From NCBI GenBank assembly GCA_963675595.2, contig CAXXLZ010000003.1:217358-281357 (forward strand): DNA of 64,000 nt, given 5' to 3'. A program made the translations under genes and the position numbers. Positions 10,437-63,930 of this stretch are shown in pieces. This DNA is from Thermodesulfobacteriota bacterium (GTDB lineage Bacteria; Desulfobacterota; Desulfarculia; JACQYL01). The notes below the pieces were generated by a model. It saw only the letters and a list, made by a program, of their open reading frames with translations, was not told where the DNA came from and did not search any database. Position 1 is the first letter of the stretch; each line of letters starts with the position of its first letter.

Positions 10437-11501
10437 ATGGCCGAAGATAGCGCATCGAACGCCGAGAATAAGAACCTTCTCGGACGTATTCTTTCCTTCC
10501 CGCCCCTCGGGAATACTTATGTCCGAGTCGCCTTGGCGGTGGTTCTGCTCGTATTGATCTATATGGCGCTGAGTTTCTTGGGGTTTTTCGGTTCGGGAAA
10601 GCGTGCGACGGATACGGGCGACTCCGTGCCGGTTCAACGGGAATCAACGAGCAAACCTCCCGGCTCGGCACCCATAGCCGCGTCGGGGGAGGATGAGAGT
10701 GCATCGGTCCGCGCGGCGGAGTCGCTTCATGGCGGGGATGTCGAGGGAGTGCGGTTTACCAAAGCCTTCGTAGCGGCGCTTGATTATGAGTTGACCGAGC
10801 ATGGTTGGAAGCCGAATTCGATCATCTCGGGAAAGCTGCATCTGACCGATAATCTTCGCAATTATCAACTAGGGGTTTTAGAGACCGTTCGACAGTTGGG
10901 TCTGATATTCAAGGAAAAGATCTCCAGATACGGCGACTCGGACAAATTCGATCACCGATTGGAGAATGCGGTGAACTATTTCATGATCAAGGCGGACCAG
11001 TTCTGGTTTCCTGCTGCTGATGATCAATATCGAAAAGGGATTGAGGAAGTCAATGTCTATCTGCAGGACCTCCAAGCCGGTCTTGTACGCTTTTATGCCC
11101 GTTCGGATAATTTCGAGGCGCTGATTCTCGCCTGCAAGGAACTGCTGGGGAACTGCCACTATAACTTGGTGAAAGAGAAGGAGCGAGACGGTGAAAAAGT
11201 CTCTTTTTTCGCCGTCGATGATTACTTCTATTACTCAAAGGGCGTAGCCAAGGCCATGGGAGATATGCTCGCGGCCACGATGTATGATTTCAAGGAAGAG
11301 CTTTCTTTGATCAAAGGGTCCTCCATGATGCGGGAAGTGGTGGACGACCTCCGGTATGCATCCGGTCTGGATCCATGGATCATACTGAACGGCGACTTGG
11401 ACGGATTTATTGCGAACCACCGTGCCAACATGGCGGTGCCTCTGGGCCAAGCGCTGTTCAAACTGAGTAATATGCTGAAGTTTGGGGGAGGGTCTTCGTA
11501 A
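10437..11501 (+). CDS. hypothetical membrane-anchored protein (possibly DUF2333 family)
   Basis: 354 aa with an N-terminal TM helix (VALAVVLLVLIYMALSFLGFF). Size and the conserved-looking block WKPNSIISGKLHLTDNLRNYQLGVLE resemble my recollection of DUF2333. This is unverified. Confidence 0.55.
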   Translation: MAEDSASNAENKNLLGRILSFPPLGNTYVRVALAVVLLVLIYMALSFLGFFGSGKRATDTGDSVPVQRESTSKPPGSAPIAASGEDESASVRAAESLHGGDVEGVRFTKAFVAALDYELTEHGWKPNSIISGKLHLTDNLRNYQLGVLETVRQLGLIFKEKISRYGDSDKFDHRLENAVNYFMIKADQFWFPAADDQYRKGIEEVNVYLQDLQAGLVRFYARSDNFEALILACKELLGNCHYNLVKEKERDGEKVSFFAVDDYFYYSKGVAKAMGDMLAATMYDFKEELSLIKGSSMMREVVDDLRYASGLDPWIILNGDLDGFIANHRANMAVPLGQALFKLSNMLKFGGGSS

Positions 11502-11549
11502 GTCCTTTTTTCAATACGGCGACACGACGTAACGCGACGAGGAAGGGGG

Positions 11550-13769: not shown

Positions 13770-13815
13770 TGGCCGCACCCGGCTCGCGCCACGAAGCAGG
13801 ATTCGGAAAACACCA

Positions 13816-44107: not shown

Positions 44108-44183
44108 GCGGGAATAGCTCAGCTGGTAGAGCATCACGTTGCCAACGTGAATGTCGCGGGTTCGAATCCCGTTTCCCGCTCCA
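44108..44183 (+). tRNA. tRNA-Gly(GCC)
   Basis: Acceptor GCGGGAA/TTCCCGC, D arm GCTCAGCTGGTAGAGC, anticodon loop TTGCCAA, T loop GGTTCGAATCC, encoded CCA. Confidence 0.95.
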
Positions 44184-44199
44184 ATCTTGAGAGCTGACG

Positions 44200-44233
44200 A
44201 AGGCAAGCTGAATGCGGCTTGCCTTTGGTGTTT
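44200..44233 (+). terminator. hairpin terminator after tRNA-Gly
   Basis: AAGGCAAGC-8 nt-GCTTGCCTT followed by TGGTGTTT. Its position argues that pncB starts at 44242, not 44212. Confidence 0.5.
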
Positions 44234-44241
44234 CGGAGCCT

Positions 44242-45744
44242 ATGGAAAATCTGACGCTGCTCACCGATTTGTATGAACTCACCATGGTGGGAGGATACTT
44301 CGCCCAAGGCAGGAGTGAGCAGAAGGCGGTGTTCGACCTGTTCTTCCGCCATCCTCCCTTCAACAGCACCTTTTGCATCGCCGCCGGGCTGGAACAAGCG
44401 GTGCAATATATCCTGAACATCCACTTCGGCAAAGAAGAGATCGACTACCTATACAAGCTCAACTTGTTCCCCGATGATTTCCTCGACTATCTCAAGACGC
44501 TCCGCTTCAGAGGGGATATCTACGCGGTTCCCGAAGGTCGAGCCGTTTTCCCCAAGACGCCCATGATTGTTGTGAAAGCGCCCATCGCCGAGGCTCAGTT
44601 CATAGAAACCGCGCTGTTGAACATCGTAAATTTCGAGACTCTCATCGCCACCAAAGCCTCCCGGATTTTCCGCTCGGCCGAAGGGGGAAGCATCATCGAG
44701 TTCGGCAGCCGTCGCGCTCATGGTCCGGACGGCGCCATTTCCGCCACCCGGGCGGCGTATATCGGCGGATGCGCCGGTACCTCCAACGTAATGGCGGGAA
44801 AGAGATTTGGAATCCCGGTCACCGGCACGATGGCGCACAGTTGGGTAATGAGCTTCGCGGACGAACTCCAGGCGTTTCGCAAGTACGCGGAAATCTATCC
44901 TCGAGCCACGGTGTTGCTGTTGGATACCTACGACACTCTGGACAGCGGTCTGCCCAACGCGATCATCGTAGGAAGGGAACTTGAGGCGAGAGGTTTCAAA
45001 CTGGCGGGTGTCCGACTGGACAGTGGGGACTTGGCCTACTTGGCCACGGAGGTGTCCCAAAGGCTCGATAAGGAAGGATTGACGAATACTCGGATTGTGG
45101 TGAGCAACAATCTCGAAGAAGAGGTCATCAGCCAGATTCACTTGGACATCCGGTCCATGGCCGCCGCCAAGAAAATCGACGGCGAACGGATCATCAAGCG
45201 GCTGGATTACGGAGTGGGGACGCATCTGGTCACCTCCAAAGGGTCGAGCTCCTTGGGCGGTGTGTACAAAATGTCGGCCATTGAGTCCAATGGGACCCTC
45301 GTGCCTAAAATCAAGATATCGGATAATCCGGACAAGACCACGAACCCCGGCTACAAGAAGCTGTATCGCTTTTACGAAGGCGGAGAGATGCATCTGGACC
45401 TGATGACCACTGCGGATGAGGACCTCGAACCCGGCACGAAGATCCGTGCGATTCATCCGGATTTCCCTTACAAGCACACGGAACTCTCTCCCCTGGAAAA
45501 TTTCGAACCGATGCTCGAAACCATCATTAAGGACGGCAAGCAGGTTCGCACGCTGCCTAGCCTTTCGGAAATTCAAGAACGGATGAGGCAGGACCTGGAA
45601 CACCTGCACATCACCTACAAGCGGATGACCAATCCGCACATATACAAGGTCAGCCTGTCGGAGAAGCTTTCGGACCTGAAGCAGCGCCTGCTCAATGAGC
45701 AGCGCGCTGAAATGAAGAATGGGGTGCCTCTGAACCGAGGGTGA
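44242..45744 (+). CDS. pncB: nicotinate phosphoribosyltransferase
   Basis: MENLTLLTDLYELTMVGGYF N-terminus; ~500-aa NAPRTase architecture. Confidence 0.85.
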   Translation: MENLTLLTDLYELTMVGGYFAQGRSEQKAVFDLFFRHPPFNSTFCIAAGLEQAVQYILNIHFGKEEIDYLYKLNLFPDDFLDYLKTLRFRGDIYAVPEGRAVFPKTPMIVVKAPIAEAQFIETALLNIVNFETLIATKASRIFRSAEGGSIIEFGSRRAHGPDGAISATRAAYIGGCAGTSNVMAGKRFGIPVTGTMAHSWVMSFADELQAFRKYAEIYPRATVLLLDTYDTLDSGLPNAIIVGRELEARGFKLAGVRLDSGDLAYLATEVSQRLDKEGLTNTRIVVSNNLEEEVISQIHLDIRSMAAAKKIDGERIIKRLDYGVGTHLVTSKGSSSLGGVYKMSAIESNGTLVPKIKISDNPDKTTNPGYKKLYRFYEGGEMHLDLMTTADEDLEPGTKIRAIHPDFPYKHTELSPLENFEPMLETIIKDGKQVRTLPSLSEIQERMRQDLEHLHITYKRMTNPHIYKVSLSEKLSDLKQRLLNEQRAEMKNGVPLNRG

Positions 45745-45877
45745 TCTCCGAAGCGAAACGTGCGCGAAGCGCGCTCATTGGCCGCACGGAGCGCTTTGAA
45801 ACGCAAGGGATTCGGTGCGGGATGCAAATCGCTTGACGGGCCGTAACCCCTCGTGATAATGGACTTTCCAATTATTT

Positions 45878-45953
45878 GCCACCGTAGCTCAGCTGGTAGA
45901 GCAGTTGATTCGTAATCATCAGGTCGGCGGTTCGAGTCCGCCCGGTGGCTCCA
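45878..45953 (+). tRNA. tRNA-Thr(CGU), integration target of the island
   Basis: Acceptor GCCACCG/CGGTGGC, D arm GCTCAGCTGGTAGAGC, anticodon loop TTCGTAA (CGT), T arm GGCGGTTCGAGTCCGCC, encoded CCA. Confidence 0.9.
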
Positions 45954-45968
45954 TAAAATCAATAGGTT
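45907..45968 (+). repeat. attL: 62-bp direct repeat (3' part of tRNA-Thr plus 15 nt)
   Basis: Identical, 62 of 62 nt, to 62195-62256 by direct comparison. Confidence 0.95.
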
Positions 45969-45996
45969 AGACGAGGTCAAAGACAGAACAGATAAA

Positions 45997-46018
45997 TCGT
46001 GTCAGCAATATGTCAGCA
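45997..46018 (+). repeat. 22-nt repeat copy 1 (TCGTGTCAGCAATATGTCAGCA), candidate arm-type site
   Basis: 21 of 22 nt identical to 62057-62078 in the same orientation. It lies 29 nt inside attL. Confidence 0.6.
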
Positions 46019-46808: not shown

Positions 46809-47033
46809 GCTGACATATCCCGATTAGTCCGTGAGCTTCGCGAACGAACGGGGCTCACCCATGAAAAATTCGCGGCTAAGCTCGGCGTGACCTACCCAAC
46901 CATCAACCGCTTGGAGAATAACCGCGCTAAGCCTTCCCCGCTGGTACTTAAACAGATTGAGGACTTGGCCCGGGGCCTGGGCAAACGGGGCAAAGACCTT
47001 CTACAGGAATTCTTCCCCGGAGAGGAGAGCTGA
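46809..47033 (+). pseudogene. XRE-family HTH regulator lacking a canonical start (probable frameshift at codon 3)
   Basis: Open frame [53 protein letters not shown], which is a typical XRE HTH. It contains no ATG, GTG or TTG. An ATG at 46801 lies one frame away and runs into TAG after 8 codons. Confidence 0.55.
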
Positions 47034-47034
47034 C

Positions 47035-48495
47035 ATGGCAAAAAACACGAACAATGGCGCGAATCTCGGCTTCGAATCTGAGCTCTGGCGTGCCGCCGAC
47101 GCGCTCCGTTCCAACATGGACGCCGCCGAGTACAAGCACGTCGTGCTCGGTTTGATCTTCCTCAAATACATCTCAGACGCCTTCGAAGAGCAACGCGCCA
47201 AGCTCGAAGCGGACCGAGCCCAGGGAGCCGACCCGGAAGACCCCGATGAGTACCGAGCCGTCAACATATTTTGGGTGCCCAAGGAGGCCCGCTGGTCCAA
47301 GCTCAAATCCGAGGCCAAGCAACCGACCATCGGCAAAACCCTCGATGACGCTATGCTCGCCATCGAGCGCGATAACCCCTCGCTAAAGGGCGTGCTGCCC
47401 AAGGACTACGCCCACCCGCGTCTCGATAAGCAGAGACTTGGTCAGCTCATAGACTTGGTCGGCAACATCGGTCTGGGAGATAAGGCCAACCGCTCCAAGG
47501 ATATTCTCGGCCGGGTCTACGAGTACTTTCTCTCTCAGTTCGCCAGCGCCGAGGGCAAGAAGGGTGGCCAGTTCTACACACCCCGCTGCGTCGTCCGTGT
47601 CCTGGTCGAGATGCTGGCCCCTTACAAGGGTCGAGTATATGACCCGTGCTGCGGCTCCGGAGGCATGTTTGTTCAATCGGTTGAATTCGTGAAGGCTCAC
47701 GCAAACGGCAATGGTAATGGAGGAAAATCAAAAGCCGATGTCAGCATCTTTGGTCAGGAGTCAAATCATACCACTTGGCGGCTGGCCAAGATGAATCTTG
47801 CCATCCGTCAGATCGAGAATAACCTCGGGAAGGAACACGCCGACAGTTTCCACCACGACCTGCACCCTGACCTCAAAGCCGACTATGTCATCGCCAATCC
47901 GCCTTTCAACGATTCCGACTGGCGCGGGGAACTGCTCAAGGACGACAAGCGATGGAAATTCGGCACACCGCCTGCCGGTAACGCGAATTTCGCTTGGGTT
48001 CAACACTTCATTCATCACCTGGCCCCGACCGGCTTGGCCGGCTTCGTTCTGGCCAACGGATCAATGTCCTCCAACCAATCGGGCGAGGGCGAAATCCGTA
48101 AAAACATCATCGAGGCCGACCTGGTGGACTGCATGGTGGCAATGCCTGGCCAACTTTTCTATTCCACCCAAATTCCGGTCTGCCTGTGGTTCATCGCTCG
48201 CGAAAAAAAGAACGGCCGCTTCCGCGATCGGCGCGGCCAGACGCTCTTCATCGACGCCCGCAAGCTGGGGACGATGATTGATCGTGTTCACCGTGAACTG
48301 ACCGAGGAGGATATCCGCAAGATCGCCGACACCTACCATGCCTGGCGGGGCGACAAAGCTGCCGGGGACTATGAAGATATATCCGGCTTTTGCAGGAGCG
48401 CCACGCTCGATGATATTCGCCATCACAACCACATCCTCACACCCGGCCGCTATGTCGGCGCGGCCGAGGTCGAAGACGACGGCGAACCCTCTTAA
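47035..48495 (+). CDS. hsdM: type I restriction-modification methyltransferase subunit HsdM (C-terminally truncated)
   Basis: N-terminal HsdM domain ([32 protein letters not shown]), motif [11 protein letters not shown] and motif IV NPPFN. It ends abruptly at ..EDDGEPS. ATG at 47035 lies 1 nt after the XRE stop. Confidence 0.85.
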
Positions 48496-49522
48496 GTATG
48501 CCTTGGCTAACTACACCGAGAGCGGCGGTAAGGGTCAGACGGCTATTGATCAGGAAGAGGCCGTGGCTGTCATGCTGGAGCGTTACGAGGTCTGCTGTGG
48601 CATCTTCCACGGCTTCGACTGGTCGACTTGGAAGACCGGTGGGCCGCAGGAAAGGCTTTCTGTGCTTCCGGCGGCGCAGGAGCATGTGCTGGGTCAGGAT
48701 GACGGTAAGAATCGGCTTGTGAAGGCGGTTGGCGAGTTGTCGAAGGCGTTTGCGCTGGCCGTTCCGCATGAGAAGGCACTGGAGATCCGGGACGACGTGG
48801 CTTTCTTCCAGGCGGTGAAGTCCGTGCTCACGAAGAGTACGGGGGACGGCCGCCGAAGTCCGGTGGAGATCGAACTCGCCATCCGGCAGATCGTTTCTAA
48901 GGCGGTGTCTTCGGATGAGGTCATCGACATCTTCGCGGCGGCCGGGTTAAAGAAGCCGGACATCTCGATCTTGTCCGATGAATTCCTATCGGAAGTGCGC
49001 GGCATGCCGCAAAGGAACTTGGCGGTGGAGATGCTGCGCAAGTTGCTGGAAGGCGAGATTAAAGCACGTGGGCGAAAGAACTTAGTCCAGGCTCGGTCGT
49101 TTGCAGAGCTCCTCGAGAATGCAATCAAGAAATACCAGAACCGGGCCATTGAAACGGCACAGGTGATCGAAGAACTGATCGCATTGGCCAAGGACCTGCG
49201 CGAGGCCAACCAGCGAGGCGAGAAGCTGGGGCTGACGGATGACGAGGTAGCTTTTTATGACGCGCTGGAGGTCAACGATAGCGCAGTGGCCGTCCTCGGC
49301 GATGAGACATTGCGGCTGATCGCTCAAGAACTCGTCAAGGCGGTGCGAAACAGCATTACCATCGACTGGACCGTCCGAGAAAACGTCCGGGCCCAGATGC
49401 GGGTGATCATCAAGCGCATTCTTCGAAAATACCGCTATCCGCCGGACAAACAGGCTCGTGCTACCGAGCTTGTCTTGGAACAGGCGGAAGTCCTTTGTAA
49501 GGACTGGACGGAAAGAGAATGA
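48494..49522 (+). pseudogene. hsdR: C-terminal fragment of type I restriction subunit HsdR (nuclease and helicase parts missing)
   Basis: [14 protein letters not shown]...[31 protein letters not shown]...[11 protein letters not shown]...[10 protein letters not shown] matches the HsdR C-terminal (DUF3387-like) region only. It begins exactly at the hsdM stop in another frame. No hsdS is present. Confidence 0.8.
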
Positions 49523-49741: not shown

Positions 49742-50545
49742 ATGGGAGTTTCCATGTGTGCTTTGGTCCTGAAATCAGGAGATAGACTGCGTGGTCCTAT
49801 CCAGTTGATTTTAGTATTAATATCTTTGGTTATTGTCGTATCTGTCGGATGCTCCACCGTCAGAGATTCAGACATGGCGGATGGAAGGCTGTCAAAGTTC
49901 AAAAGTATACAGGGCATATCAAAAGTTGTTTTCTTCTGGAAAGCCAGTAAAGCTAGACCAATTCCTATTCTAACGCTATATGATGGAAGTTCTCCTGTAA
50001 TAAATTTAGTCCCTTACACAAAATATTTCTATAAATGTTCTCCTGGAAAGCACATATTTAAATTATTTTCCATTAAACAAAAGTTGTGCGATTTTATGAT
50101 TGCTGATTTGGCACCTGAGCGAACCTATTTTGTTGAGCTGTTTGCTCTATATCATGAGAAACAAGTCGGAAAAGTATCCGGAATTTCGTCGGCAGCTACT
50201 TTTGGTTCCGGTAATCTGATTGGCTCTCTCGGTGGTTTTAGTGGGACAATTACATCAAGCAATATGATGGTCAAACTGATACCAAGAGACCTGAAGTCCG
50301 AGTCGCTTAACCTTGTTCTGAAGTCGACCGCCTACTGCAGTGACAGATCGGAAGAAGATCCCATTGAGCCTTGGGTGGAGAAATGGCGTGGTGAGATACA
50401 TTTCTTGGACTTGGAAGCGAAGCGTATCTTTTCGGAATTGGATCCTGGGCTGCGCAACCGCATGGATTATGATTATGGCATGAAGCTGACAAAAACGGAA
50501 CTTGATCCGTTCATCAGAATGCACTCAAAGGCGTCCGACGATTAG
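49742..50545 (+). CDS. hypothetical lipoprotein (N-terminal part DUF2846-like?)
   Basis: Lipobox LVIVVSVGCS. The gene is AT-rich and convergent with the protease gene. No confident family assignment. Confidence 0.55.
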   Translation: MGVSMCALVLKSGDRLRGPIQLILVLISLVIVVSVGCSTVRDSDMADGRLSKFKSIQGISKVVFFWKASKARPIPILTLYDGSSPVINLVPYTKYFYKCSPGKHIFKLFSIKQKLCDFMIADLAPERTYFVELFALYHEKQVGKVSGISSAATFGSGNLIGSLGGFSGTITSSNMMVKLIPRDLKSESLNLVLKSTAYCSDRSEEDPIEPWVEKWRGEIHFLDLEAKRIFSELDPGLRNRMDYDYGMKLTKTELDPFIRMHSKASDD

Positions 50546-50572: not shown

Positions 50573-52768
50573 TTACTTTCCCGAAATGCTCTTGACGAGC
50601 CGCAAGCCCAAATGGGGACCGCGGTCCTCTTCTTTGCCGTATAGGCGGTTGGCGGAACGGCAGTTTCTGGCGCGATTGTTCCAACCGCCGCCGCGAAACA
50701 CCCGGGTCGCTCCGGAAGCGGGTCCCAGTGGATCTCGCTGTGAGAGCAGGCGGTAATCCCCATAACCGTCTTGAACCCATTCCCAGACATTGCCGTGCAT
50801 GTCATACAAGCCCCATGCGTTGGGAGACAGGGAGGCCGCCGGAACCGTTTCTTCACGGTATACACCTCGCCGGCAACCCGGGGGCGGGTGGTTCCCATTA
50901 TAGTTGACGTCCTCGGTCAAGACACAGATACCAAAAGAATAGGGTGTAGTTGACCCGGCACGGGCGGCATACTCCCACTCTGCCTCCGTAGGTAGCCTGT
51001 AGTGATCGGAGCCTGCAAGCAGGTTCAATTTCTTGATGAAATGCCGGCAATCAATCCAGGATACCTGTTCCACAGGGCAATCGTCTCCGCATTTCGAAAA
51101 ATAGGAGGGATTCGAGCCCATGACTTCTCGCCACTGGCCCTGGGTCACCTCAGTGGTCTGAACATAGAAGCCGTGGGTGAGCGTGACTTCATGGGGCGTT
51201 TCGTCATTGTCTCTCATCATTTCAAGTTCGGTACTACCCATCCTGAAGGTGCCGGGTACAACGTACTGAAATTCCATCCCCAGTGAATTAACCAGCTTTG
51301 AGTCTTTGGTTCTTTCCCAATAAATAGGGCCAACCTTTGGAACCTCAACCCTGCTTGTGCTTTTTGGTTCGATTTCGGATATCGCTTCGTACTCGGTAAC
51401 CCTGATGGAGTACATTGGAGATGGACTCGGAATGTGAGTAAACACCAAGCTGAATGGTATACGGCCTCCCGCTGCGATATACTCGTTGAAGCGATCTCGT
51501 CCTTCTCGGGTATTCACTGCCCTGGAAAGCTGCGAGAGGGTGAGATTATTGATTTCGTTGTCCGTCCATCGATTTCCGGCATAGGCAACAGTCTTGAAAA
51601 GCGGTAGCACTTCCTTGTTCGCCTGTGAACGGAGCAATCCTTGAACACGTAGAGAACGCACCGGATAAGGGTTGTTGTTCCTGATCCTTCCCTGGACAAC
51701 GAAAATGAGACCGAGTGCGTCCGCCTGGATGAACCGCCCTTCAACTTCGTGCAAGGTGAAGAAATTGGACTCTCCTTCTTCTTCAACATATCTCGGGAGC
51801 TCTGGCGTCTCTCGGGAAGGCTCCGTGGGTTGCGTGACGGTCTCTATAGGTTTTACTTGCTCGGTCTTTTGACTATCAGGAGGATTCGAACGCGTTGAAT
51901 CACCGTCGGGCTCAGTTAATTCCTTAACCTGGGATGCTTCCGGTTCGGGTTGGGGGGACTCGATCCGTTCAACCGATTCTACTCCTCCCTCCTTTTCGGG
52001 TTGGGGGGACTCGATCCGTTCAACCGATTCTACTCCTCCCTCCTTTTCATTCCCAGGTGCAATATTCTTGCTTTTTCGTTTGTCGTTTGGAAGAGCCGAA
52101 ATGCCGTGCTTGTCCATAAGGTCCTTTAGTTCGGTTGAAGCAATCGCGATGTTGAGGTTTTGACCTGCAACATAGGACTCGGTAGCAACGCCAATCACCA
52201 TGCCTTTGGAATTCAGCACCGGCCCCCCGCTGCTTCCCGGTGATATGGGAGCCGTGATCTGGATGATTTTCACGGACTTGATTTCCCTGATCGCACTGAC
52301 CATTCCGTCTGAAAAGGTGCCCTCCAATCCCAAAGGATTGCCGACCACGAATACCTGATCTCCAACTTCCAAATCCAAGTTGTGCGAAAGGGTTAAGGGA
52401 GGTGCCTGGATTCCGGGAACCGCCAGTAGAACCAAGTCGTGTTCCGTATCCGATGCGATGACTCCTTCAATTGCCTGAACATCTTCCCGACCGATTATCT
52501 TTACAACACCCAAAGTAGAATCTTTGATTACATGGTAGTTTGAAGCCACAACACCCTTCTTTACTATGAAGCCGCTCCCGAATGAAATCGGTTTTCGATT
52601 TTCATCGGCCATCACCAGTAGTACCACGGAAGGGAAAACTTCTTTGGCTATTTCACTGGGTGTCTTTGCTTTTGTGATATTAGGGAGAAGCAAGCAGTTT
52701 ATAAAGAGGAAATGAATAATAAAGGTGATTCTCAAGCGATTATGGCTAATTTTGCATGCTCCGGTCAT
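50573..52768 (-). CDS. secreted multidomain protein: trypsin-like serine protease + repeat linker + DUF3426-like domain + FGE-sulfatase (SUMF1) domain
   Basis: Signal peptide; catalytic triad contexts SNYHVI / EHDLVLL / PGSSGGPVLN; C-terminal HGFYVQTTEVTQGQW, YRLPTEAEWEYAARAG, HGNVWEWVQD and FRGGGW. Confidence 0.8.
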   Translation of the reverse strand: MTGACKISHNRLRITFIIHFLFINCLLLPNITKAKTPSEIAKEVFPSVVLLVMADENRKPISFGSGFIVKKGVVASNYHVIKDSTLGVVKIIGREDVQAIEGVIASDTEHDLVLLAVPGIQAPPLTLSHNLDLEVGDQVFVVGNPLGLEGTFSDGMVSAIREIKSVKIIQITAPISPGSSGGPVLNSKGMVIGVATESYVAGQNLNIAIASTELKDLMDKHGISALPNDKRKSKNIAPGNEKEGGVESVERIESPQPEKEGGVESVERIESPQPEPEASQVKELTEPDGDSTRSNPPDSQKTEQVKPIETVTQPTEPSRETPELPRYVEEEGESNFFTLHEVEGRFIQADALGLIFVVQGRIRNNNPYPVRSLRVQGLLRSQANKEVLPLFKTVAYAGNRWTDNEINNLTLSQLSRAVNTREGRDRFNEYIAAGGRIPFSLVFTHIPSPSPMYSIRVTEYEAISEIEPKSTSRVEVPKVGPIYWERTKDSKLVNSLGMEFQYVVPGTFRMGSTELEMMRDNDETPHEVTLTHGFYVQTTEVTQGQWREVMGSNPSYFSKCGDDCPVEQVSWIDCRHFIKKLNLLAGSDHYRLPTEAEWEYAARAGSTTPYSFGICVLTEDVNYNGNHPPPGCRRGVYREETVPAASLSPNAWGLYDMHGNVWEWVQDGYGDYRLLSQRDPLGPASGATRVFRGGGWNNRARNCRSANRLYGKEEDRGPHLGLRLVKSISGK
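51947..52048. repeat. perfect 2 x 51-bp tandem duplication inside the protease gene
   Basis: 51947-51997 is identical to 51998-52048. It encodes EKEGGVESVERIESPQP twice. Confidence 0.95.
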
Positions 52769-52799
52769 TATCTTTCAGGCTCTCTCGAAAAAAGTAGGG

Positions 52800-53843
52800 T
52801 CAAAAGCCGTGGAGTTTCTTCAAATACCCGTAAGCTTCGTTAATCTCTTTCATGCGTTGTTCCGCTTCTTCTCTGAAACGGGGCTGTAACTGTTGAACCC
52901 GATCGGGATGGAAATGCATTACAAGGCGTCGGTAAACGGATTTGATCTCCTGTGGTGTGGCACCGTGTGAGAGCCCCAACACCCATAAATGCTCTTCCTC
53001 TGATTTCTGTTTTCGGCTCCCCTTTGACTTCTGTCTTCTTTCTTGTTCTTTATCTCTTTCTTCTCGATACTTGGAAAACGCCGGACCTCGCGTCCCCAAA
53101 ATACTTTCGGCTTGGTTTAAGAGCAATTCTTCCTCCGCACTGAGCCTTTGGTCTGCAGAGGCAATAAGAAAGAGTGCGTCAAGGACGTTAGTGCAGAATG
53201 GTATGTCCGACCCCCAATTGCGCCGAAGCCGGTGGGCATGGAATTCAAAAGGCTGCGGCGATTCCTTCGCGTTGTTGAATACGGAAATAGCGCGTCTGAT
53301 TCCGCCGTCATCAAGTTGGAAGCCGTTTCGGAGGAATTCCTTGACTACCGTGACTTCTCTCGGGTCAATATGTCCGTCTACGCTGGAAATCTTCGCCATG
53401 AGAGCGACAACATCTTCAAGCAGTTGAGAACCTCTGTTTTGTTCCTGTTCCATTCGTCGGTTCGCTTCCACGAAGTTCACCGGATTCGTAGGATTCTTGA
53501 GGATGAAATCGAACAAAGCGCGAATCACGTCTTGATCGATATGCAGCTTGAGGCTCAGCTTCGGACCGAACCACCCGTCTTGCTTCACACTCATTCGGAA
53601 AGGCTCGAATCGGGCTTTGTTCAGATCAAAGATTCTCCCGTCGCCTTCGATTCGTCCGTCCGAATAGAACCGAGCATTTTGATAAACGAAAAAGCCTTCC
53701 CGTTCGAATTGGCCGGCATAAGGGGCCATACGTTTTTCAAATGTCTTTTGTGCTATGTAGCTGTAGGCAACTACGAGTTTAGGTTGCACGAAAAAGGCGT
53801 TTCTCCTCACCGAAACAGGTTTAGGTAGTCCTTTGACGTACAA
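52800..53843 (-). CDS. DjlA-like co-chaperone: novel N-terminal domain + TerB-like domain + C-terminal J-domain
   Basis: TerB-like AKISSVDGHIDPREV and IASADQRLSAEEELLLNQAESILG. The J-domain LGLSHGATPQEIKSVYRRLVMHFHPDRV..EINEAYGYLKKLHGF resembles the E. coli DjlA tail. The start is TTG, and the frame stays open a further 64 codons upstream (to 54035) without a canonical start. Confidence 0.75.
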   Translation of the reverse strand: MYVKGLPKPVSVRRNAFFVQPKLVVAYSYIAQKTFEKRMAPYAGQFEREGFFVYQNARFYSDGRIEGDGRIFDLNKARFEPFRMSVKQDGWFGPKLSLKLHIDQDVIRALFDFILKNPTNPVNFVEANRRMEQEQNRGSQLLEDVVALMAKISSVDGHIDPREVTVVKEFLRNGFQLDDGGIRRAISVFNNAKESPQPFEFHAHRLRRNWGSDIPFCTNVLDALFLIASADQRLSAEEELLLNQAESILGTRGPAFSKYREERDKEQERRQKSKGSRKQKSEEEHLWVLGLSHGATPQEIKSVYRRLVMHFHPDRVQQLQPRFREEAEQRMKEINEAYGYLKKLHGF

Positions 53844-54059
53844 GTCGAGGTTTGTTTCTTGTGTAATTATGATACCACTGTTTCTGGAAACCCAGTGCCA
53901 TCCGATACCCGTAATGTCATTGAAGTTGCAGCGTACCGAACGGTGCTGGAAGCGATCCGGATAGACCTTGAGTTTACCAACGATAAAGGGATTTGAGTCG
54001 GAAATATGAATGGTTTTTGACCCCAGTATGGTTTCTTATTTCAAGTACGGTTCAAGAAC

Positions 54060-54815
54060 TTAGAAATCTTCAGCCCTGATGGACGCGGTACGAAGATTCC
54101 CGTGAGAAACGGGATATAATGTTACGGAGTATCCGTTGATTTGGTTACCATCTGCCTTAAAATTAAAAATCTGTTCAGCCTTGAAGTATGCTGTATCCGC
54201 ACCGAAAAGGTGTTCATAACCATACCACTCATTTCCCAAGGCATAGCGCAACTCGTAACTTCCCAATGGGATGTCTAATTTTACCTTGGATGCTGGATGC
54301 AGGAATACGGAAAGAACTTGGGTCTTGCTGAAATGGTCCACCAACTTGACCAATGTATAGGGGCCTTGTTGCGTTTTGATCTCCAGGGGGGCGACGGCTT
54401 CTCGATTCGTGCTTTTTCGTATCTCGCCGTTGAGAGGTAGCGCCTGTTTGGGGTAAGAAGGCGGCGCTTCCACGATCGCAGGGGGCTGTGGAGTGGGCAA
54501 AACAGGCTTATCTTTGGTTGGCTCGCTGTTCTTGTAAATAAGATAAACCACAACGATGCCGACAATGAGAATGAGAAAGGTTCTCAGTGAGGAGGACGAA
54601 TTCTTACCTTGGCTCATCGCTTCGTCGGAAGCACTGGGCTTTTCCCTCTCTTGCGGGGCTGTATGTGCCTGTCTTGCTTGCGCGGGTTGTTCACCTAAAT
54701 AGGTCCAACAAGCTGCGCAAATGGGCTTTCCTGCACCCACCTGATTTCGAATGAGATTGCGTTTTCCGCAATTGGGGCAGACGACAATGTAATCCGTTTG
54801 CGATGAGGTGTTCAT
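54060..54815 (-). CDS. zinc-ribbon / single-pass membrane protein with unknown C-terminal beta-rich domain
   Basis: CPNC-x15-CAAC zinc ribbon at the N-terminus, TM helix LRTFLILIVGIVVVYLIY, a Pro-rich linker, then about 130 aa of no recognised family. Confidence 0.65.
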   Translation of the reverse strand: MNTSSQTDYIVVCPNCGKRNLIRNQVGAGKPICAACWTYLGEQPAQARQAHTAPQEREKPSASDEAMSQGKNSSSSLRTFLILIVGIVVVYLIYKNSEPTKDKPVLPTPQPPAIVEAPPSYPKQALPLNGEIRKSTNREAVAPLEIKTQQGPYTLVKLVDHFSKTQVLSVFLHPASKVKLDIPLGSYELRYALGNEWYGYEHLFGADTAYFKAEQIFNFKADGNQINGYSVTLYPVSHGNLRTASIRAEDF

Positions 54816-55440: not shown

Positions 55441-55677
55441 TCAGTCGTCCTCTTCGACCTCTTGAGGCAACCTGAGGTTGTGCCGCCTGGCATCCTCCAG
55501 TGCGGCCTTATCGCCGATCTTGATGAAGAAGGCGCAGGCGGGTTGGTGGTCCTTGTATCCATACCGAATCAGGGCCATTTCTTTCGTTTCGTGCTTGAAA
55601 AGAAACAGGATGGCGACATCCGGTCCGGGATCTTCACCGCGCTCTAAGTAACGGATTCTGGCATCGAGGTTCTTCAT
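55441..55677 (-). CDS. hypothetical small protein (island core module)
   Basis: 78 aa, MKNLDARIRYLERGED.... The ATG overlaps the stop of the upstream gene (ATGA at 55674-55677). Confidence 0.5.
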   Translation of the reverse strand: MKNLDARIRYLERGEDPGPDVAILFLFKHETKEMALIRYGYKDHQPACAFFIKIGDKAALEDARRHNLRLPQEVEEDD

Positions 55678-56087
55678 TGTTTCTCCTTGAAATAGGCCTT
55701 CTCGATAGCCGAGATACGGGCTTCCAAATCTTCCACTTCGGTGGCCTTCAGCCCCATGTCCAGCACGGCCCGGGCCGCCGAAACCCTGGCCGAAGCGCCG
55801 GACTGCGGGTCGTTGATTACGGAGCGAAGCGCTTCCACCCCTTCCGCCATGGCCGCCTGCACCTGCCCGACGGCCCGTCCTACCGCCTCCCTGCGGGCCT
55901 CGCGATAGGCTTCCTTGAATTCTTGGATTCGGAGCCATCGCCAGAGGGTCTTCTCCGAGACTCCCGTGCGTTTGGCGGCTTCCGGAATCGTGGGATGCGT
56001 GAGCAAAGCGGCCACCGCCAGTTCCATCTTTCGGGATAGCTTCTCTCCATGGCCGGTCATCTGGGGACTTCTGCCGTCATCGTTCAT
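55674..56087 (-). CDS. phage/satellite-type HTH DNA-binding protein (small-terminase-like N-terminus?)
   Basis: 137 aa. HTH-like IPEAAKRTGVSEKTLWRWLR followed by a helical tail. Confidence 0.55.
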   Translation of the reverse strand: MNDDGRSPQMTGHGEKLSRKMELAVAALLTHPTIPEAAKRTGVSEKTLWRWLRIQEFKEAYREARREAVGRAVGQVQAAMAEGVEALRSVINDPQSGASARVSAARAVLDMGLKATEVEDLEARISAIEKAYFKEKQ

Positions 56088-56929: not shown

Positions 56930-59749
56930 TCATGATTCGAAAATCTCCGGAAGGAGGTGATAGAGCCTTATGGTTTTCCGCAGCGCACAGACGTATTGAC
57001 TGCACGCGGACTTCCCGTCCCTCCCCGGAATCATCAGACCGCGATCGATGAGCCCCCTGGATACCAACTTGTTATCGAACCCGGCGCAGAGCTCAGTCCG
57101 GAAGACCTCAGGGAGCACGAAGTAGTGAACACCGTCGGCCTCTAAGGATTTGAAACCAGCCCGCTTGATCGTCGGACGGGCTTTTTCTCTGATTCGTTCG
57201 TTGTCCTCCGACAAGTCCTCCGTGTCGCCGCGCATCGGCGCAAAGCGACTGTCCCCATCTTGCTCCAAGAAGTGCCGAATCTGGGCCAAAGCAGCGTGCA
57301 TTTCCCGGGGGCCGGCAGTGCCCCGCTGTTCCAGCCAGTCCTTGAAACAGGCCTCGGCCGCCTTCGAGGCGGTGCCTTCCGGCCATGGAAGGACCTTCAG
57401 GTTGGAGGCAAATTCCCCTGCGGCGGCTACCAGGCCGAATCGCTGAAGCGCGCGAAAAACTTGGCCGTCCGCGCCCTCCGGGCGCTGCTCGGAACTGAAG
57501 TCCCGTCGGAAGTCTTCAATTTGCTTTTTCAGTTCGTCCAGGCGAGAAGTAATCCCTTCCAAGAAAGCCCGCGCCGGTGTACCATAAAATCGACCGGTCA
57601 AGTCCTTCAGGTGCCGGGCGAAAGCGTCGGCTGATGGGAAACCGTGCAACTCCTCGAACAGCCCCAACCCGGCTCCGGCGTCGGCCGGGATGTCCAGAAC
57701 CCGGACTTCTTGACCAGCCGTCGCTTTCAAACCGGACTCCGAGACCTTGTCGGCCAGGCTCAACTCGCCGGTGGAGAGGAAGAGGGTCCGCCATTGCGCC
57801 ACGGGCCTTGGCGATGCATTTGGGCGTAGCCGCGCCTTACCTTGACCGTTGGCCAGAAGATAGGCGGTCTCACCCGCTTGGTTCCCAGAAATTTGCGAGA
57901 TTTCATCCAGGCAGAGAAGAATATCACAGTGAGCCAAAGCCACGGCTTCCAAGGCATTCGAAGTCGCACGCCACTGCGAAATGTACCCGTGGTCGCCGCC
58001 ACCACAAACGGAACCGGCAACGCGAAGTGCCGTGGTTTTGCCGCAGCTCGAAGGGCCACGGAAGTGAAATCCCCCGGACTCCTCGCCGAGGACCCCGACC
58101 AAAGTCGCAGCGAATGCGCAGGAAACCGCGAAGATCAGACGCGAATTCCCCAGGCAAAGGCGACCGATTTCGTCGCGCCATTCATCCAGGGTCCCTGCGA
58201 TCTGCAGACGGTGAGTCGTGGTGGTGCGGGTCTGGAGTGCGATGGTCTCCTCGTCTTCCCCGCCGATGGTGCCATCCGGCAGAACGAACCGATCACCGTG
58301 CCAACCGATCCGGTCCACGCAGCGGATTCGGTCGGCAGGATCGGAGTCTGTGAGGTACGTCTCAAGGGCGGTTTTGGCCTTGGGGTCCGTTCCAAGCCTC
58401 ACACCCTGGAAAAGCAGTTGTTTCCGCAGTTCAGCCCCGTTCCCGCCCAGGAGGCTGATGGGTACGGCCCACCGGTGGACCTCCCCGTCCGGATCGGTGA
58501 ATTCGATGAGTCGGCCCCAATCCGCGCTCTCCGAGTTCCGGGTCAAAGCGATGACGCGTAACGGCGAGCAGACCTTGATCCACTCGGTGGCTTTGATGCC
58601 TTTACGCGTGACTTCATTGGCGTACCAGACCCCCTGCTCATCGGTTTTGAAGGGCCAAGATTTCACCGTGTGCTCCCCAGGACGCGATTTTGCAGATTTG
58701 TCGGAATAGTCAGGTTTTTTCGCCTTTTCGATCATTCTTTTGATGATTTCCCCGTGGCCGGCCATCAAAAGCTCGTTTGTATCTTTCAAGCCGTCCGGTG
58801 CCAAGTCCCAATCCACGACACGACATTGACCCCGGAGAAGCTCGATGCCTCTGGCTGTGGCCTTTCGGCCCGCATCGTCCCCGTCGAAAAAGAGGATTGG
58901 CAGAGAGTAGTTCAGCTGAAACCTTTCGAGCGCTTTGGTGTTCGACGCCGAAAATAGCGCAGCGACGTTCATGCTCGGCATGACCGCAAGGACCGACAAA
59001 GCGTCGAAGACCGCTTCCGTGATAACCACCGGGGCCTGTATCCTATAGACGAAAACCCCTGCCGTAGAGCCTTTGATGAAGAGCTTGTCCCGGCCCTTCT
59101 GGGCCAAGTGTTTGGGAATGACTCGTTGGATGCCCACAACGGGAGAGTTCCCTGCATGATCGCTGCTCCTGGAGGGGAACAGCACGGAAGGGGGATACTT
59201 GCCGTTGCTGGGCGAGAACCCTACTGTACCAACCTCGCGGAGCATTGGGAGCACTTCGGCGAGCCCCCGCCTCCCGAACTCGGCGATAACTTCCGGAGGA
59301 GGGGGAACTTTGGTGGACTTGGCGAACATGACGGAGAAGTCCGGAGTGGTCTTCTTTGACGAGGTTCGAACCTCAGAGTTAGCTCTTGAGACTGTTCGGT
59401 TGCCGTTTCCGAGTCCCAGCTCTTCCGAGAGCGCCCGCACTGACGCCTTGAAGTCCAACCCGGTTCCCGCCCGGTAGAGGTCGATCACGTCGAAGCTCCT
59501 TGAGCATTTCCCGAAACAGTGTGCACGTTCATTCTTGAGGGACATGCTTGGGTTGGTGTCTTCATGACATGGACAAATCACGTTTCCCGATTCACGGTAC
59601 AGGTCTGGCCAGAATCGACGGAACATGTCTCGACAGTCGGTCAGGCCCTTAATCTTAGCAACCAGATCGCCCCTATGGCCCGAGATATCGTTTCCGGGAC
59701 TGGTACCTGGTGACACCTGGGTATTTCGACTCGTGATCTCCAAAGTCAC
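56930..59749 (-). CDS. bifunctional DNA primase / replicative helicase (CHC2 zinc finger + Toprim + DUF927 + P-loop)
   Basis: CPCHEDTNPSMSL..HCFGKC zinc finger, Toprim-like FFDGDDAGRKA, DUF927-like block IGWHGDRFVLPDG, and Walker A GPSSCGKTTAL. GTG at 59749 gives a GTGA overlap with the excisionase stop. Confidence 0.85.
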   Translation of the reverse strand: MTLEITSRNTQVSPGTSPGNDISGHRGDLVAKIKGLTDCRDMFRRFWPDLYRESGNVICPCHEDTNPSMSLKNERAHCFGKCSRSFDVIDLYRAGTGLDFKASVRALSEELGLGNGNRTVSRANSEVRTSSKKTTPDFSVMFAKSTKVPPPPEVIAEFGRRGLAEVLPMLREVGTVGFSPSNGKYPPSVLFPSRSSDHAGNSPVVGIQRVIPKHLAQKGRDKLFIKGSTAGVFVYRIQAPVVITEAVFDALSVLAVMPSMNVAALFSASNTKALERFQLNYSLPILFFDGDDAGRKATARGIELLRGQCRVVDWDLAPDGLKDTNELLMAGHGEIIKRMIEKAKKPDYSDKSAKSRPGEHTVKSWPFKTDEQGVWYANEVTRKGIKATEWIKVCSPLRVIALTRNSESADWGRLIEFTDPDGEVHRWAVPISLLGGNGAELRKQLLFQGVRLGTDPKAKTALETYLTDSDPADRIRCVDRIGWHGDRFVLPDGTIGGEDEETIALQTRTTTTHRLQIAGTLDEWRDEIGRLCLGNSRLIFAVSCAFAATLVGVLGEESGGFHFRGPSSCGKTTALRVAGSVCGGGDHGYISQWRATSNALEAVALAHCDILLCLDEISQISGNQAGETAYLLANGQGKARLRPNASPRPVAQWRTLFLSTGELSLADKVSESGLKATAGQEVRVLDIPADAGAGLGLFEELHGFPSADAFARHLKDLTGRFYGTPARAFLEGITSRLDELKKQIEDFRRDFSSEQRPEGADGQVFRALQRFGLVAAAGEFASNLKVLPWPEGTASKAAEACFKDWLEQRGTAGPREMHAALAQIRHFLEQDGDSRFAPMRGDTEDLSEDNERIREKARPTIKRAGFKSLEADGVHYFVLPEVFRTELCAGFDNKLVSRGLIDRGLMIPGRDGKSACSQYVCALRKTIRLYHLLPEIFES

Positions 59750-59982
59750 GCCTGGGCTCCGGTGTCGGAAGTAGATCGCCGTTTGGCTTGGTCGGCCCAA
59801 GCGTCAAGGTCTCGGACGTCATACAGGACGCGCCGACCAAATTTTCGGAAAACCGGGCCACGCCCGGTGCCCCGGAACTTCTGGAGCGTTCTTGGAGAAA
59901 GGTTGAGCCTCATCGCCGCTTCGATTTCGGGCACAAAACGCGTGAACATGCGCATACCGCCTTTCAGTTTGTTAATTTTCAA
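59746..59982 (-). CDS. AlpA/excisionase-family HTH protein
   Basis: LNLSPRTLQKFRGTGRGPVFRKFGRRVLYDVRDLDAWA is the typical excisionase/AlpA HTH. The start could be TTG at 59982 or ATG at 59955. Confidence 0.75.
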   Translation of the reverse strand: MKINKLKGGMRMFTRFVPEIEAAMRLNLSPRTLQKFRGTGRGPVFRKFGRRVLYDVRDLDAWADQAKRRSTSDTGAQA

Positions 59983-60834: not shown

Positions 60835-62055
60835 CTATTCTTTATGATTATGCCTTATTATTGAGATCATCTTCTGCTGAACCGGTCTTGACATGGCTTC
60901 GTTGATCTTCTCTCCTATCAGTTCGGCGGCCGCGCGAAGCGGATCATTGGCAAGATGGGCATACCTGGCTGTGGTTGCCGGCTGGGAATGTCCCAGCAGG
61001 GCGCCGAGCAAAGGCAACCCCAGGCCTGCGGCTGCGGCAACGCTCGCGAAGGAATGCCTCAAGTCGTGGCACCGGACATCGGGAATATCGGCTCGCTTCC
61101 GGATTCTCCGCCATGGCTTGTTTAAATTGACGAGATGCTTTCCGGGCACCTCCCCGGGAATCACGTAGGGATTGAGTTCCATCCTGGGCAACGTCTCCAG
61201 AACCTCCAACGCCGGGCCGTTCAGCATGATCTCCTTGGCGCCGGTTTTGGAGTCCTCCAAATGCAGACATCCCCGATCAAGGTCCACATCCTTCCATTTC
61301 AATGAAAGTATCTCGTTCAACCGAGCGCCGGTCAGCAGGAGCAGTCGAATGGCCGCAACGGCGAACGGCGACTCGCTACTGTCGGTTTCCGCTTCGGCCA
61401 ATGTAGCGCCGAGGTGGGCGAGTTCGTCACCGTTGAGATATCGTTTTCGGGCCGTTTCCTTGAATTTCTGCACTCGCGTGCAAGGGTTGGCATTCTCCGG
61501 CCGGAGCCCCCAAACCTCGGCCAAGTTAAACAGCTTGGAGAGTAGGGCCAGCACTCGATTCGCCGCGTATGGGGTTTTCCTCAGCTTGTGGTGCAGTCGT
61601 GCGATGTCCGCTCGATTCACTTCCTTGACTTGCTTCTTGCCGAGGTTTGGGAGCACGTGCAGATCGATCATGCTGTTATCGGTCCGCCGGCTGTTCGGCT
61701 TTTTCTTGGCAAGATGTCTCTCACGATACATCTCCACGAGTCGGTCGACGGTTTCGGCTGATCGGGCCTCCGAGCGTGTCACAACGGGATCCTCGCCTTG
61801 GCCGATACGGACCACAAGGGCGCGTGCTTGGTCTCTTGCCTGGTCGATGGTGAGCACTCCGTATCTGCCGATGGTGAAGCGCCGCGAGGTTCCGGCTGCA
61901 TTCCGATATTGGAGGATAAAGAACTTCTTCCCGTTGGGAAGCACCAGCACTCCGAAGCCCGGCACGAGGTCATCCCAGAGGTACTTGCGTTTTGTGTCAA
62001 CAATAACGGCGTCCACCATTTTTTTTGTCAGTTTTGCCAATGAGTTACCCTCCAA
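60835..62055 (-). CDS. int: tyrosine-type site-specific integrase (DUF4102 arm-binding N-terminus)
   Basis: N-terminal LTKKMVDAV..YLWDDLVPGFGVLVLPNGKKFFILQYR; catalytic HDLRHSFAS and the ..ARYAHL Tyr region. TTG at 62040 (SD GGAGG at 62049-62053) is an alternative start. Confidence 0.9.
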   Translation of the reverse strand: MEGNSLAKLTKKMVDAVIVDTKRKYLWDDLVPGFGVLVLPNGKKFFILQYRNAAGTSRRFTIGRYGVLTIDQARDQARALVVRIGQGEDPVVTRSEARSAETVDRLVEMYRERHLAKKKPNSRRTDNSMIDLHVLPNLGKKQVKEVNRADIARLHHKLRKTPYAANRVLALLSKLFNLAEVWGLRPENANPCTRVQKFKETARKRYLNGDELAHLGATLAEAETDSSESPFAVAAIRLLLLTGARLNEILSLKWKDVDLDRGCLHLEDSKTGAKEIMLNGPALEVLETLPRMELNPYVIPGEVPGKHLVNLNKPWRRIRKRADIPDVRCHDLRHSFASVAAAAGLGLPLLGALLGHSQPATTARYAHLANDPLRAAAELIGEKINEAMSRPVQQKMISIIRHNHKE

Positions 62056-62056
62056 G

Positions 62057-62078
62057 TCGTGTCAGCAATATGTCAACA
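62057..62078 (+). repeat. 22-nt repeat copy 2 (TCGTGTCAGCAATATGTCAACA)
   Basis: Immediately upstream of the int start. Partner of 45997-46018. Confidence 0.6.
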
Positions 62079-62194: not shown

Positions 62195-62256
62195 GATTCG
62201 TAATCATCAGGTCGGCGGTTCGAGTCCGCCCGGTGGCTCCATAAAATCAATAGGTT
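62195..62256 (+). repeat. attR: 62-bp direct repeat (tRNA-Thr 3' fragment)
   Basis: Identical to 45907-45968. The 5' part of the tRNA is absent here. Confidence 0.95.
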
Positions 62257-62961: not shown

Positions 62962-63930
62962 TCATGACTCGCGGTTTTCCATCCCCGGCCCTTGGGGCCT
63001 CGGCGAAGCCGAGCTGAGCGAGGCGGAGTCGAGGCCCCAAGGGCTCGCCGCGAACTGGGCCGGGGTCATGTAATTCAATGCACTGTGCGGTCTTTCCTCG
63101 TTATAGGCTTTCCGCCATTTGGCGGCCAGAGTCTGCGCTTCCTTGATGTTGTTGAAAATTTCCATGTTCAAGAATTCATCCCGAAAACGGCTGTTGAAAC
63201 TTTCCACGTACCCGTTCTGCCAAGGGGCTCCCGGCTCGACGAAAAGGGTTCCCACTCCCAGGTCTTTCAGCCAGTTTCTCACCTTTTGGGCTATAAATTC
63301 GGGACCGTTATCCGATCGAATGCCCGTTGGAACTCCCCGCTCGCCCATCAATCGGCTCAGCTCGTTCAAAACGTCTTCACCCGTAATGGAGCGGTTGATC
63401 CTCAGGGCCAGGTTTTCCCGAGTAAACTCGTCGACAATGGCCAAGCACTTGAACTGACGGCCGTCGACCAAGCGGTCATGAATGAAATCCAACGTCCAGA
63501 CATCATTTGCAAAAGCCGCCTTACGCTTGTTGCACGCATTGGCATCAACTCCCAGGAAGCGTTTCTTCTTGGCTTTTCGAGGTGCCTTGAATCCTTCCTC
63601 TTTCCAAAGTCTATGAATTCGCTTGTAGTTTACCGCCCACCCCGCATCACGCAGCAGCCGAGTGATCCTACGGCATCCAAAACGGGGATGTTCTCCAACC
63701 AACCGGTGAAGAGCCTTGATCAGTTCCACCTCATCGTCCCGTTCCTTCGGCTCATAACGTTGGGTGGATCGGTGTTGACCGGCTACGCGGCAGGCCCGAC
63801 GCTCTGAAGCGGCATGTTCACTTCGAACATAATCAACCGCTTTCCTACGACGCGCCGGGCTTAGAAGTTTCCCTCCGCAAGATCCTTCAGCATTGCCTTG
63901 TCCAACATCAGATCGGCGACCAGCTTTTTT
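62962..63930 (-). CDS. IS3-family transposase OrfB (DDE/rve), expressed as an OrfAB fusion by -1 frameshift
   Basis: LLSPARRRKAVDYV..SERRACR.. HTH_21-like region, then an rve core (WTLDF, SDNGPEF, PWQNGYVESFN). The frame is open upstream of the GTG at 63729, back to the A6G site. Confidence 0.85.
   Translation of the reverse strand, partial: KKAGRRSDVGQGNAEGSCGGKLLSPARRRKAVDYVRSEHAASERRACRVAGQHRSTQRYEPKERDDEVELIKALHRLVGEHPRFGCRRITRLLRDAGWAVNYKRIHRLWKEEGFKAPRKAKKKRFLGVDANACNKRKAAFANDVWTLDFIHDRLVDGRQFKCLAIVDEFTRENLALRINRSITGEDVLNELSRLMGERGVPTGIRSDNGPEFIAQKVRNWLKDLGVGTLFVEPGAPWQNGYVESFNSRFRDEFLNMEIFNNIKEAQTLAAKWRKAYNEERPHSALNYMTPAQFAASPWGLDSASLSSASPRPQGPGMENRES

Follow-up and report, generated by a model that had tools for sequence, protein, structure and literature searches.

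The locus described here lies in a stretch of 64,000 nucleotides from a Thermodesulfobacteriota bacterium (contig CAXXLZ010000003.1, positions 217,358 to 281,357), called the window below. It consists of three co-directional genes, which had been described from the sequence alone as one cassette of island cargo. Genes 1 and 2 form a tightly conserved two-gene unit, and what is new at the locus is best classed as a probable split membrane J-protein whose external domain is undescribed. The three genes are the following (ORF, open reading frame):

54060..54815, minus strand: gene 1, encoding a bitopic membrane protein of 251 aa
52800-53843, minus strand: gene 2 as listed, an ORF of 347 aa
52800..54011, minus strand: gene 2 as re-delimited here, probably encoding a soluble J-domain co-chaperone of ~403 aa
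50573..52768, minus strand: gene 3, encoding a predicted exported S1C protease with an FGE-sulfatase (FGS) domain, 731 aa

As listed, they are separated by gaps of 216 nt (genes 1 and 2) and 31 nt (genes 2 and 3). A terminator-like site was looked for on the minus strand between the three genes and none was found, so that gene 3 is probably co-transcribed with genes 1 and 2. The GC content of the three genes is 0.48-0.50, compared with ~0.55 in their surroundings.

The conservation of the pair was seen in every locus where a gene 2 homologue could be placed: each of them is preceded, at a distance of 9-15 nt, by a full-length gene 1 homologue (15 loci, corresponding to 8 independent contexts). 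In two alphaproteobacterial loci (L024 and L027), zinc-ribbon homologues of gene 1 are convergent to proteins of 415-430 aa that resemble gene 2 and contain its N-terminal domain (E 1e-10 and 6e-9), TerB and DnaJ. This means that the adjacency is kept even where the operon structure is not. An all-versus-all clustering of 639 neighbouring ORFs of the gene 1 family returned as recurrent neighbours only the gene 2 family and generic two-component kinases and regulators, and no DnaK paralogue was present among them. In L058 (positions 2004-2919) and L059, the pair is directly preceded by two additional genes, one for a small DnaJ protein (158 aa) and one with Sel1 repeats (136 aa).

The gene 1 product begins with a four-cysteine zinc ribbon (CPNC..CAAC, aa 12-36, nt 54708-54782), predicted to be cytoplasmic, whose Pfam match is below threshold. 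It is followed by a disordered linker, a single transmembrane (TM) helix at aa 75-93 in a hydropathy scan, and a Pro-rich linker. The protein ends with a beta-rich domain of ~130 aa (aa 121-251, nt 54063-54455), hereafter the C-domain, whose conserved columns read PLGxYExRYAxGxxWYGxxxLFG...GNLxT..I...F, and which has no match in Pfam-A, NCBIfam, PHROG or PADLOC. In an AlphaFold2 (AF2) model of gene 1, with an overall predicted local distance difference test score (pLDDT) of 65 and ~80 in the C-domain core, this domain is all-beta. Foldseek gave only weak matches for it, to beta-sandwiches (transthyretin, VHL beta domain, cytolysin domain 4 and CnaB, E 5e-3 to 3e-2); no fold assignment was retained from these matches, and the model suggests a generic beta-sandwich without family assignment.

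The C-domain family is large. An exhaustive profile search, with clusters counted at 50% identity, returned 4,756 representative clusters at E<=1e-3, of which 986 reach E<=1e-30. Among the 150 best matches listed, the C-domain is nearly always at the extreme C-terminus. The best 154 of the 4,756 clusters comprise 33 fusions to a J-domain with its HPD motif, 30 zinc-ribbon forms, ~30 'MRDLYKRLG' forms with a J-like N-terminus lacking HPD, and a remainder of other forms, including TPR fusions. One subclass with neither J-domain nor zinc ribbon (P0183, P0190, P0212, P0216, P0227, P0259 and others) starts with a short conserved 'K/R-GF(A/S)GLSxLxSxI' motif.

The association of the C-domain with J-domains was then quantified. 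The gene 1 alignment was scanned against one genome per GTDB species, yielding 40 loci from many phyla, and a J-domain profile was run over these loci, 34 of which were informative. In 18 of the 40 (18/34 informative), the C-domain is preceded in its own ORF by a J or J-like domain at the N-terminus; a J-domain gene is found within 2.5 kb in 5 further loci; 11 have no J-domain nearby, and 6 are too close to a contig end to tell. Pfam confirmed DnaJ in the tested fusions (E 1e-7 to 1e-20). On this sequence evidence, the C-domain is strongly tied to J-domains in evolution. The fusions also bear on topology. A J-domain must be cytoplasmic to meet DnaK, and in the seven Firmicutes fusions that were scanned, the J-like domain, one TM helix and the C-domain follow each other in that order. 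Since a single TM helix separates the two domains there, the C-domain is expected to lie outside the cytoplasm.

These fusions of J-domain, TM helix and C-domain, which are uncharacterised, come from Planctomycetota, Lentisphaerota, Acidobacteriota, Hydrogenedentota, Firmicutes and others (for instance L011, L016, L021 and L028), and their C-domain is 40-54% identical to that of gene 1. With the J-domain placed across the membrane from the C-domain, they would be functionally the same module in a single polypeptide. They differ from the pair in that the J-domain is N-terminal and fused, TerB is missing, one or three TM helices lie between J-domain and C-domain, and HPD is lacking in many Firmicutes members.

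Gene 2 was proposed in the original prediction to be DjlA-like, with TerB followed by a C-terminal HPD J-domain, and Pfam upheld this. TerB was detected with E 4.8e-16 (59.5 bits for a cutoff of 24.4, nt 53070-53411), and DnaJ with E 7.9e-12 (45.5 bits for a cutoff of 27.8, nt 52818-52982), with an intact HPD in the motif HFHPDR. Upstream of both is a domain of ~190 aa (nt 53451-54011) composed of two beta-sheet-plus-helix units, so that the order is N-terminal domain, TerB, J-domain. A hydropathy scan of the extended protein revealed no TM segment, and its AF2 model, computed from 35 sequences with a mean pLDDT of 90.8, is that of a soluble protein. In Foldseek, the J-domain of the model matched solved J-domains with a probability of 1.0, including the DnaK-bound 5nro.

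The N-terminal domain is a new domain. A sequence search of the PDB with it gave nothing below E 0.46. Two candidate folds were considered and rejected: a PUR/Whirly-like fold, which reached Foldseek probabilities of 0.04-0.11 in a whole-model search dominated by the J-domain, and a PH-like fold, an impression of seven strands plus a helix, twice, drawn from secondary structure alone.

As judged from its homologues, gene 2 exceeds the listed ORF by ~60 codons. Its frame is uninterrupted from end to end, being open up to 54035, with the preceding in-frame stop at 54036-54038; when it is extended to that stop, alignments with homologues of 384-466 aa cover 94-99% of it. The residues that are invariant in the N-terminal extension (I11, P16, Y25, P26 and D40) are all kept, and the pLDDT across it is 96-98. 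The suggestion that the open upstream frame is coding was thus well founded, as was the shrinking of the gap to gene 1 that follows from it; the gap becomes 33-48 nt, instead of the ~24 nt first given. The product proposed by the gene caller (P0121, 329 aa) is truncated by ~75 aa, which is likely an annotation error.

Gene 3 starts with a hydrophobic segment (aa 14-32) that would act as export signal, followed by a Trypsin_2 domain (E 8e-27, nt 52124-52585) in which the His/Asp/Ser triad motifs are present, PGSSGG included. Next come an acidic, Pro-rich, repeat-containing linker and a middle region, and the protein ends with an FGS domain of the C-type-lectin fold (Pfam E 8.8e-41, nt 50591-51262). 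The S1 protease and FGS domains had both been read correctly from the translation; the DUF3426-like domain placed between them corresponds to a weak match below the Pfam cutoff (E 0.0043). The linker contains one repeat:

51939..52040: tandem repeat of two 51-nt copies (family D1, 96% identity), encoding a duplicated EKEGGVESVERIESPQP

The protease domain resembles models of the Do/HtrA family (HtrA, DegP, DegS), at 97 bits. The NCBIfam cutoff is 416, however, all equivalog cutoffs are missed widely, and gene 3 has no PDZ match. As for the FGS domain, it belongs to the fold family of true FGE (SUMF1). Its closest solved relatives are TvpA (E 7e-22), PvdO (8e-19) and PorK/GldK (4e-16), which are ligand-binding or non-FGE members of the family, ahead of FGE itself (2.5e-14). 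It is predicted to be a lectin-fold binding domain of non-catalytic type. TvpA is a variable protein of a diversity-generating retroelement. Diversification of this kind was considered for gene 3 and rejected: the last 328 nt of the gene have no near-repeat anywhere in the 64-kb window, and no template repeat for it was found there.

No full-length orthologue of gene 3 was found among 5.8 billion clusters; the best relatives match it in one domain only, protease or FGS, with a query coverage of no more than 43%. There are abundant Trypsin_2 proteins whose C-terminal domains vary (FGE-sulfatase, TPR, Sel1, PG-binding), and stand-alone Trypsin_2-FGE proteins are common. Three relatives of gene 3 were looked up in their genomes. 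They lie beside other trypsins, a vWA/PP2C/kinase set, or MoxR and a sulfatase, and none of these loci carries a homologue of gene 1 or gene 2. Among them, the multi-trypsin relatives in L050 (9880-16016) adjoin VWA_2 (a faint match), PP2C and Pkinase-TPR-WD40 genes. Conversely, a trypsin-FGS gene was found beside the pair in none of the 8 independent gene 2-anchored loci and none of the 40 gene 1-anchored loci. Because gene 3 has no full-length orthologue and the relatives that were looked up are never beside genes 1 and 2, we place it outside the conserved unit. It appears from these comparisons to be a lineage-specific local add-on rather than a conserved partner, and is best classed with the common exported trypsin-FGS proteins, of which it is an ordinary representative.

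To what known system does the pair compare? DjlA (PRK09430) is the best NCBIfam match of gene 2, over model positions 41-265 of 267. The score is 82.7 bits for an equivalog cutoff of 162. DjlA itself combines a TM helix with a TerB-like domain and a J-domain, and its signalling through DnaK on the Rcs pathway needs the TM helix and the J-domain (PMC11709261). Among the class C J-proteins of bacteria, membrane proteins of the DjlA type have the most abundant architecture (PMC10410713); their clients and signals are unclear. Gene 2 differs from DjlA in having no TM helix and in carrying the additional N-terminal domain; the membrane anchor, with a sizeable domain presumed to be external, would come from the separate, co-conserved gene 1. 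Like DjlA, gene 2 would then work at the inner membrane.

We favour, with a probability of about 0.6, the reading that genes 1 and 2 encode a split DjlA-like membrane-tethered DnaK co-chaperone and sensor, gene 3 being a lineage-specific add-on and all three being cargo of an integrative element. The gene 1 product would cross the membrane once, with the conserved beta-rich domain outside and the zinc ribbon in the cytoplasm, so that the anchor would expose a domain for sensing or ligand binding on the outer side. The gene 2 product would dock, via its N-terminal domain or TerB, on the cytoplasmic portion of the gene 1 product. J-domains with HPD activate the ATPase of DnaK, and that of gene 2 would do so at the membrane site of gene 1. 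In physiological terms, changes in the external domain could be passed on to DnaK, which would remodel a client close to the membrane, comparable to the action of DjlA on the Rcs pathway. The gene 3 protease would act in the same compartment as the external domain of gene 1.

Several points weigh against this reading. The contact between the products of genes 1 and 2 is one that we infer, and an hhalign comparison of the N-terminal domain of gene 2 with the middle domain of the fused proteins, which is cytoplasmic, gave a probability of 0.5%; no homology could be detected, and the relationship was rejected on this basis. The link between C-domain and J-domain is strong, not obligatory, as 11 of the 34 informative loci have no J-domain nearby. 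The J-like domains of many Firmicutes members and of the 'MRDLYKRLG' forms lack HPD and would be unable to activate DnaK. In the present genome, gene 2 is without a canonical start and is possibly poorly expressed or recently inactivated. Finally, gene 3 follows gene 2 at a distance of 31 nt without an intervening terminator, and a lineage-specific functional tie between gene 3 and the pair is possible.

The three genes are cargo of a 16.3-kb element integrated at a tRNA-Thr gene and bounded by perfect 62-nt direct repeats. The island setting, the tRNA-integrated element and the decayed restriction-modification neighbour, all claimed beforehand, were confirmed: repeats of the tRNA 3' end flank an integrase-bearing segment, with the integrase adjoining attR, and the type I restriction-modification locus (46957..49522) is clearly decayed, with a fragment of hsdR and no hsdS. 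The features of the element, in order, are these (HTH, helix-turn-helix):

45878-45953: tRNA-Thr(CGT) gene
45907..45968, plus strand: attL, 62-nt direct repeat comprising the 3' part of tRNA-Thr(CGT) and 15 nt
46957-48495, plus strand: hsdM, intact, part of the type I restriction-modification locus
48338-49522, plus strand: ORF with the HsdR C-terminal domain only, overlapping hsdM
49742..50545, plus strand: ORF of 267 aa, convergent with gene 3, with a lipoprotein-type signal (lipobox SVGC)
55674-56087, minus strand: small-terminase-like or excisionase-like HTH protein, element backbone
56930-59800, minus strand: Zn-ribbon/Toprim/DUF927 primase, element backbone
60835-62055, minus strand: tyrosine integrase, element backbone
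62195..62256, plus strand: attR, identical 62-nt copy of the attL repeat

The 267-aa ORF has no match in Pfam, NCBIfam, PADLOC or PHROGs. Apart from the cargo genes 1 to 3, Pfam scans of the element's ORFs of at least 110 aa revealed restriction-modification, integrase, primase and HTH families only, and no vWA, MoxR, VMAP or STAND/iSTAND. A 25-nt near-repeat, AAATCGTGTCAGCAATATGTCAGCA (92% identity), is present just inside both att ends, at 45994-46018 and 62054-62078; its copies may be arm-type binding sites of the integrase or excisionase. Directly outside attR lies an IS-type transposase (rve_3/rve/HTH_21, 62962-63729). On the other side, in the region 44108-45953, a nicotinate phosphoribosyltransferase gene (44212-45744) is flanked by tRNA-Gly(GCC) and tRNA-Thr(CGT), two tRNA genes that have a 19-nt identical stretch in common.

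The setting in other genomes leads to the first alternative, according to which genes 1 and 2 are a dedicated system against phages or mobile elements, sensing envelope perturbation or injected material and diverting or activating DnaK, with gene 3 as unrelated cargo. In 5 of the 8 independent loci the pair is found among mobile-element, toxin-antitoxin or defence genes, to which the present integrative element, with its restriction-modification remnants, can be added. In L002 (6051-11053) and L003, the pair lies between CARF-RelE (PADLOC E 3e-136) and a complete PDC-M45A/B/C set (E 1e-92, 1e-82 and 1e-74). In L006-8 it is part of an ArdC/DUF3987 mobile element, with a WD40 protein containing a caspase-like region and a Trypsin-PDZ gene 1-4 kb downstream (in L006, where these two are found at 10275-14727, the WD40 protein is 996 aa long and its caspase-like region scores E 3.9e-10 in PADLOC). 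One pair locus is beside Tn7-like TnsA/TniB genes, another among HipA, MazE, IS200, resolvase and Prok-E2/ThiF-JAB genes, and AbiEii is downstream of the pair in L058 and L059. Mainly housekeeping neighbours are found in the three remaining loci (L001, L005 and L009). In L033, from Syntrophomonadaceae, relatives of PDC-M45 (DuOB and DUF488) were noticed 3.5 kb from a fused gene 1-like gene.

The defence systems Shango (SngA), Bunzi (BnzA) and Dionysus (DinB) also contain TerB domains, and DnaJ mediates phage sensing by bNACHT25 (PMC12169576). With the former three, the pair shares TerB, the defence-island setting and a proposed surveillance of the membrane. Their partners are helicase, ATPase or pore-forming proteins, however, and they have no J-domain. 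No PADLOC v2 system protein model, those of Shango and Bunzi included, matched gene 1 or gene 2 at E<=0.01, in keeping with the earlier statement that no named system has this composition; gene 3 gave protease-domain matches only (RT-Protease_XI and PDC-M35A). Nor does the pair contain a recognisable effector domain (nuclease, pore or NADase). Gene 1 relatives are absent from 2.9 million viral contigs (IMG/VR), where gene 2 gave J-domain-level matches only; this is in favour of a defence role, and carriage of the pair by phages was rejected on the same data. A sample of 8 independent loci is small, so that we regard the mobile and defence context as suggestive. Defence, like envelope surveillance, is a possible role of the pair, but a dedicated defence system is an explanation that we hold to be rather unlikely.

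The second alternative is the one put forward originally: all three genes would form one new defence or conflict system, with the protease-FGS protein as sensor or effector and the zinc-ribbon/TM and TerB-J proteins as partners. Besides the shared orientation, the short gap and the absence of a terminator-like site, it can call on the common location of the three genes in the island cargo and on their common lower GC content. The earlier remark that FGS domains are fused to proteases in such settings was accurate: Kaur et al. 2020 (PMC7159879) describe NTP-dependent conflict systems in which a peptidase is followed by a C-terminal FGS domain. Proteases or FGS proteins are also found at some distance from the pair elsewhere. 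The nearest in the gene 2-anchored loci are an FGE-sulfatase gene standing alone in L005, 0.5 kb upstream, and the Trypsin-PDZ gene of L006-8, 4 kb downstream; L033 has a trypsin gene 1.4 kb upstream. But no protease or FGS gene was found in the flanks (up to 8 kb) of 5 of the 8 independent pair contexts, and the relatives of gene 3 that were looked up do not co-localise with genes 1 and 2 in other genomes. The vWA-MoxR ternary systems (VMAP/iSTAND) do have a trypsin-like peptidase N-terminal to FGS, as gene 3 does; they differ in that no vWA, MoxR or STAND gene is near gene 3, the whole island being without such a component, and in that gene 3 has an export signal. A single three-gene system is therefore very improbable, and the cassette should not be treated as one.

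The last alternative concerns the start of gene 2. No ATG, GTG or TTG is present in the conserved first ~64 codons of the extended gene. The codon ATT at 54011-54009 aligns exactly with the ATG of two homologues (P0122 and P0137), and a GGGG run precedes it at a distance of 9 nt; a second candidate is CTG at 54026-54024. Both codons can serve as rare starts. Judging from the alignment, ATT 54011 is the probable start of gene 2; the gene either uses a rare start codon or lost its start very recently. That the module is decaying cargo, non-functional in this genome through the loss of this start, would agree with the decay of the neighbouring restriction-modification locus, but the frame of gene 2 is intact with all its invariant N-terminal residues, and genes 1 and 3 are intact as well, so that we give this explanation little credit.

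The preferred reading, a split DjlA-like co-chaperone and sensor, replaces a three-gene cassette by a conserved pair and a local addition, and corrects a likely annotation error in gene 2. A bolder version of it is that genes 1 and 2 belong to an undescribed, widespread family of transmembrane J-proteins whose outer domain gates the recruitment of DnaK, that the split proteobacterial form serves as a chaperone-based system against phages and mobile elements, carried by integrative elements, Tn7-like transposons and defence islands, and that an exported protease with a lectin-like domain was added to it here; we mention this version as speculative, the odds being against it. For the family at large, a big and unstudied group of C-domains is tied to a cytoplasmic J-domain, by fusion or by strict adjacency, which provides a testable model of transmembrane signalling to Hsp70 with the C-domain as candidate sensor domain. 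The recurrence of this family in mobile elements and defence islands would also make it a reasonable candidate for the so far unexplained link between TerB, chaperones and phage defence.

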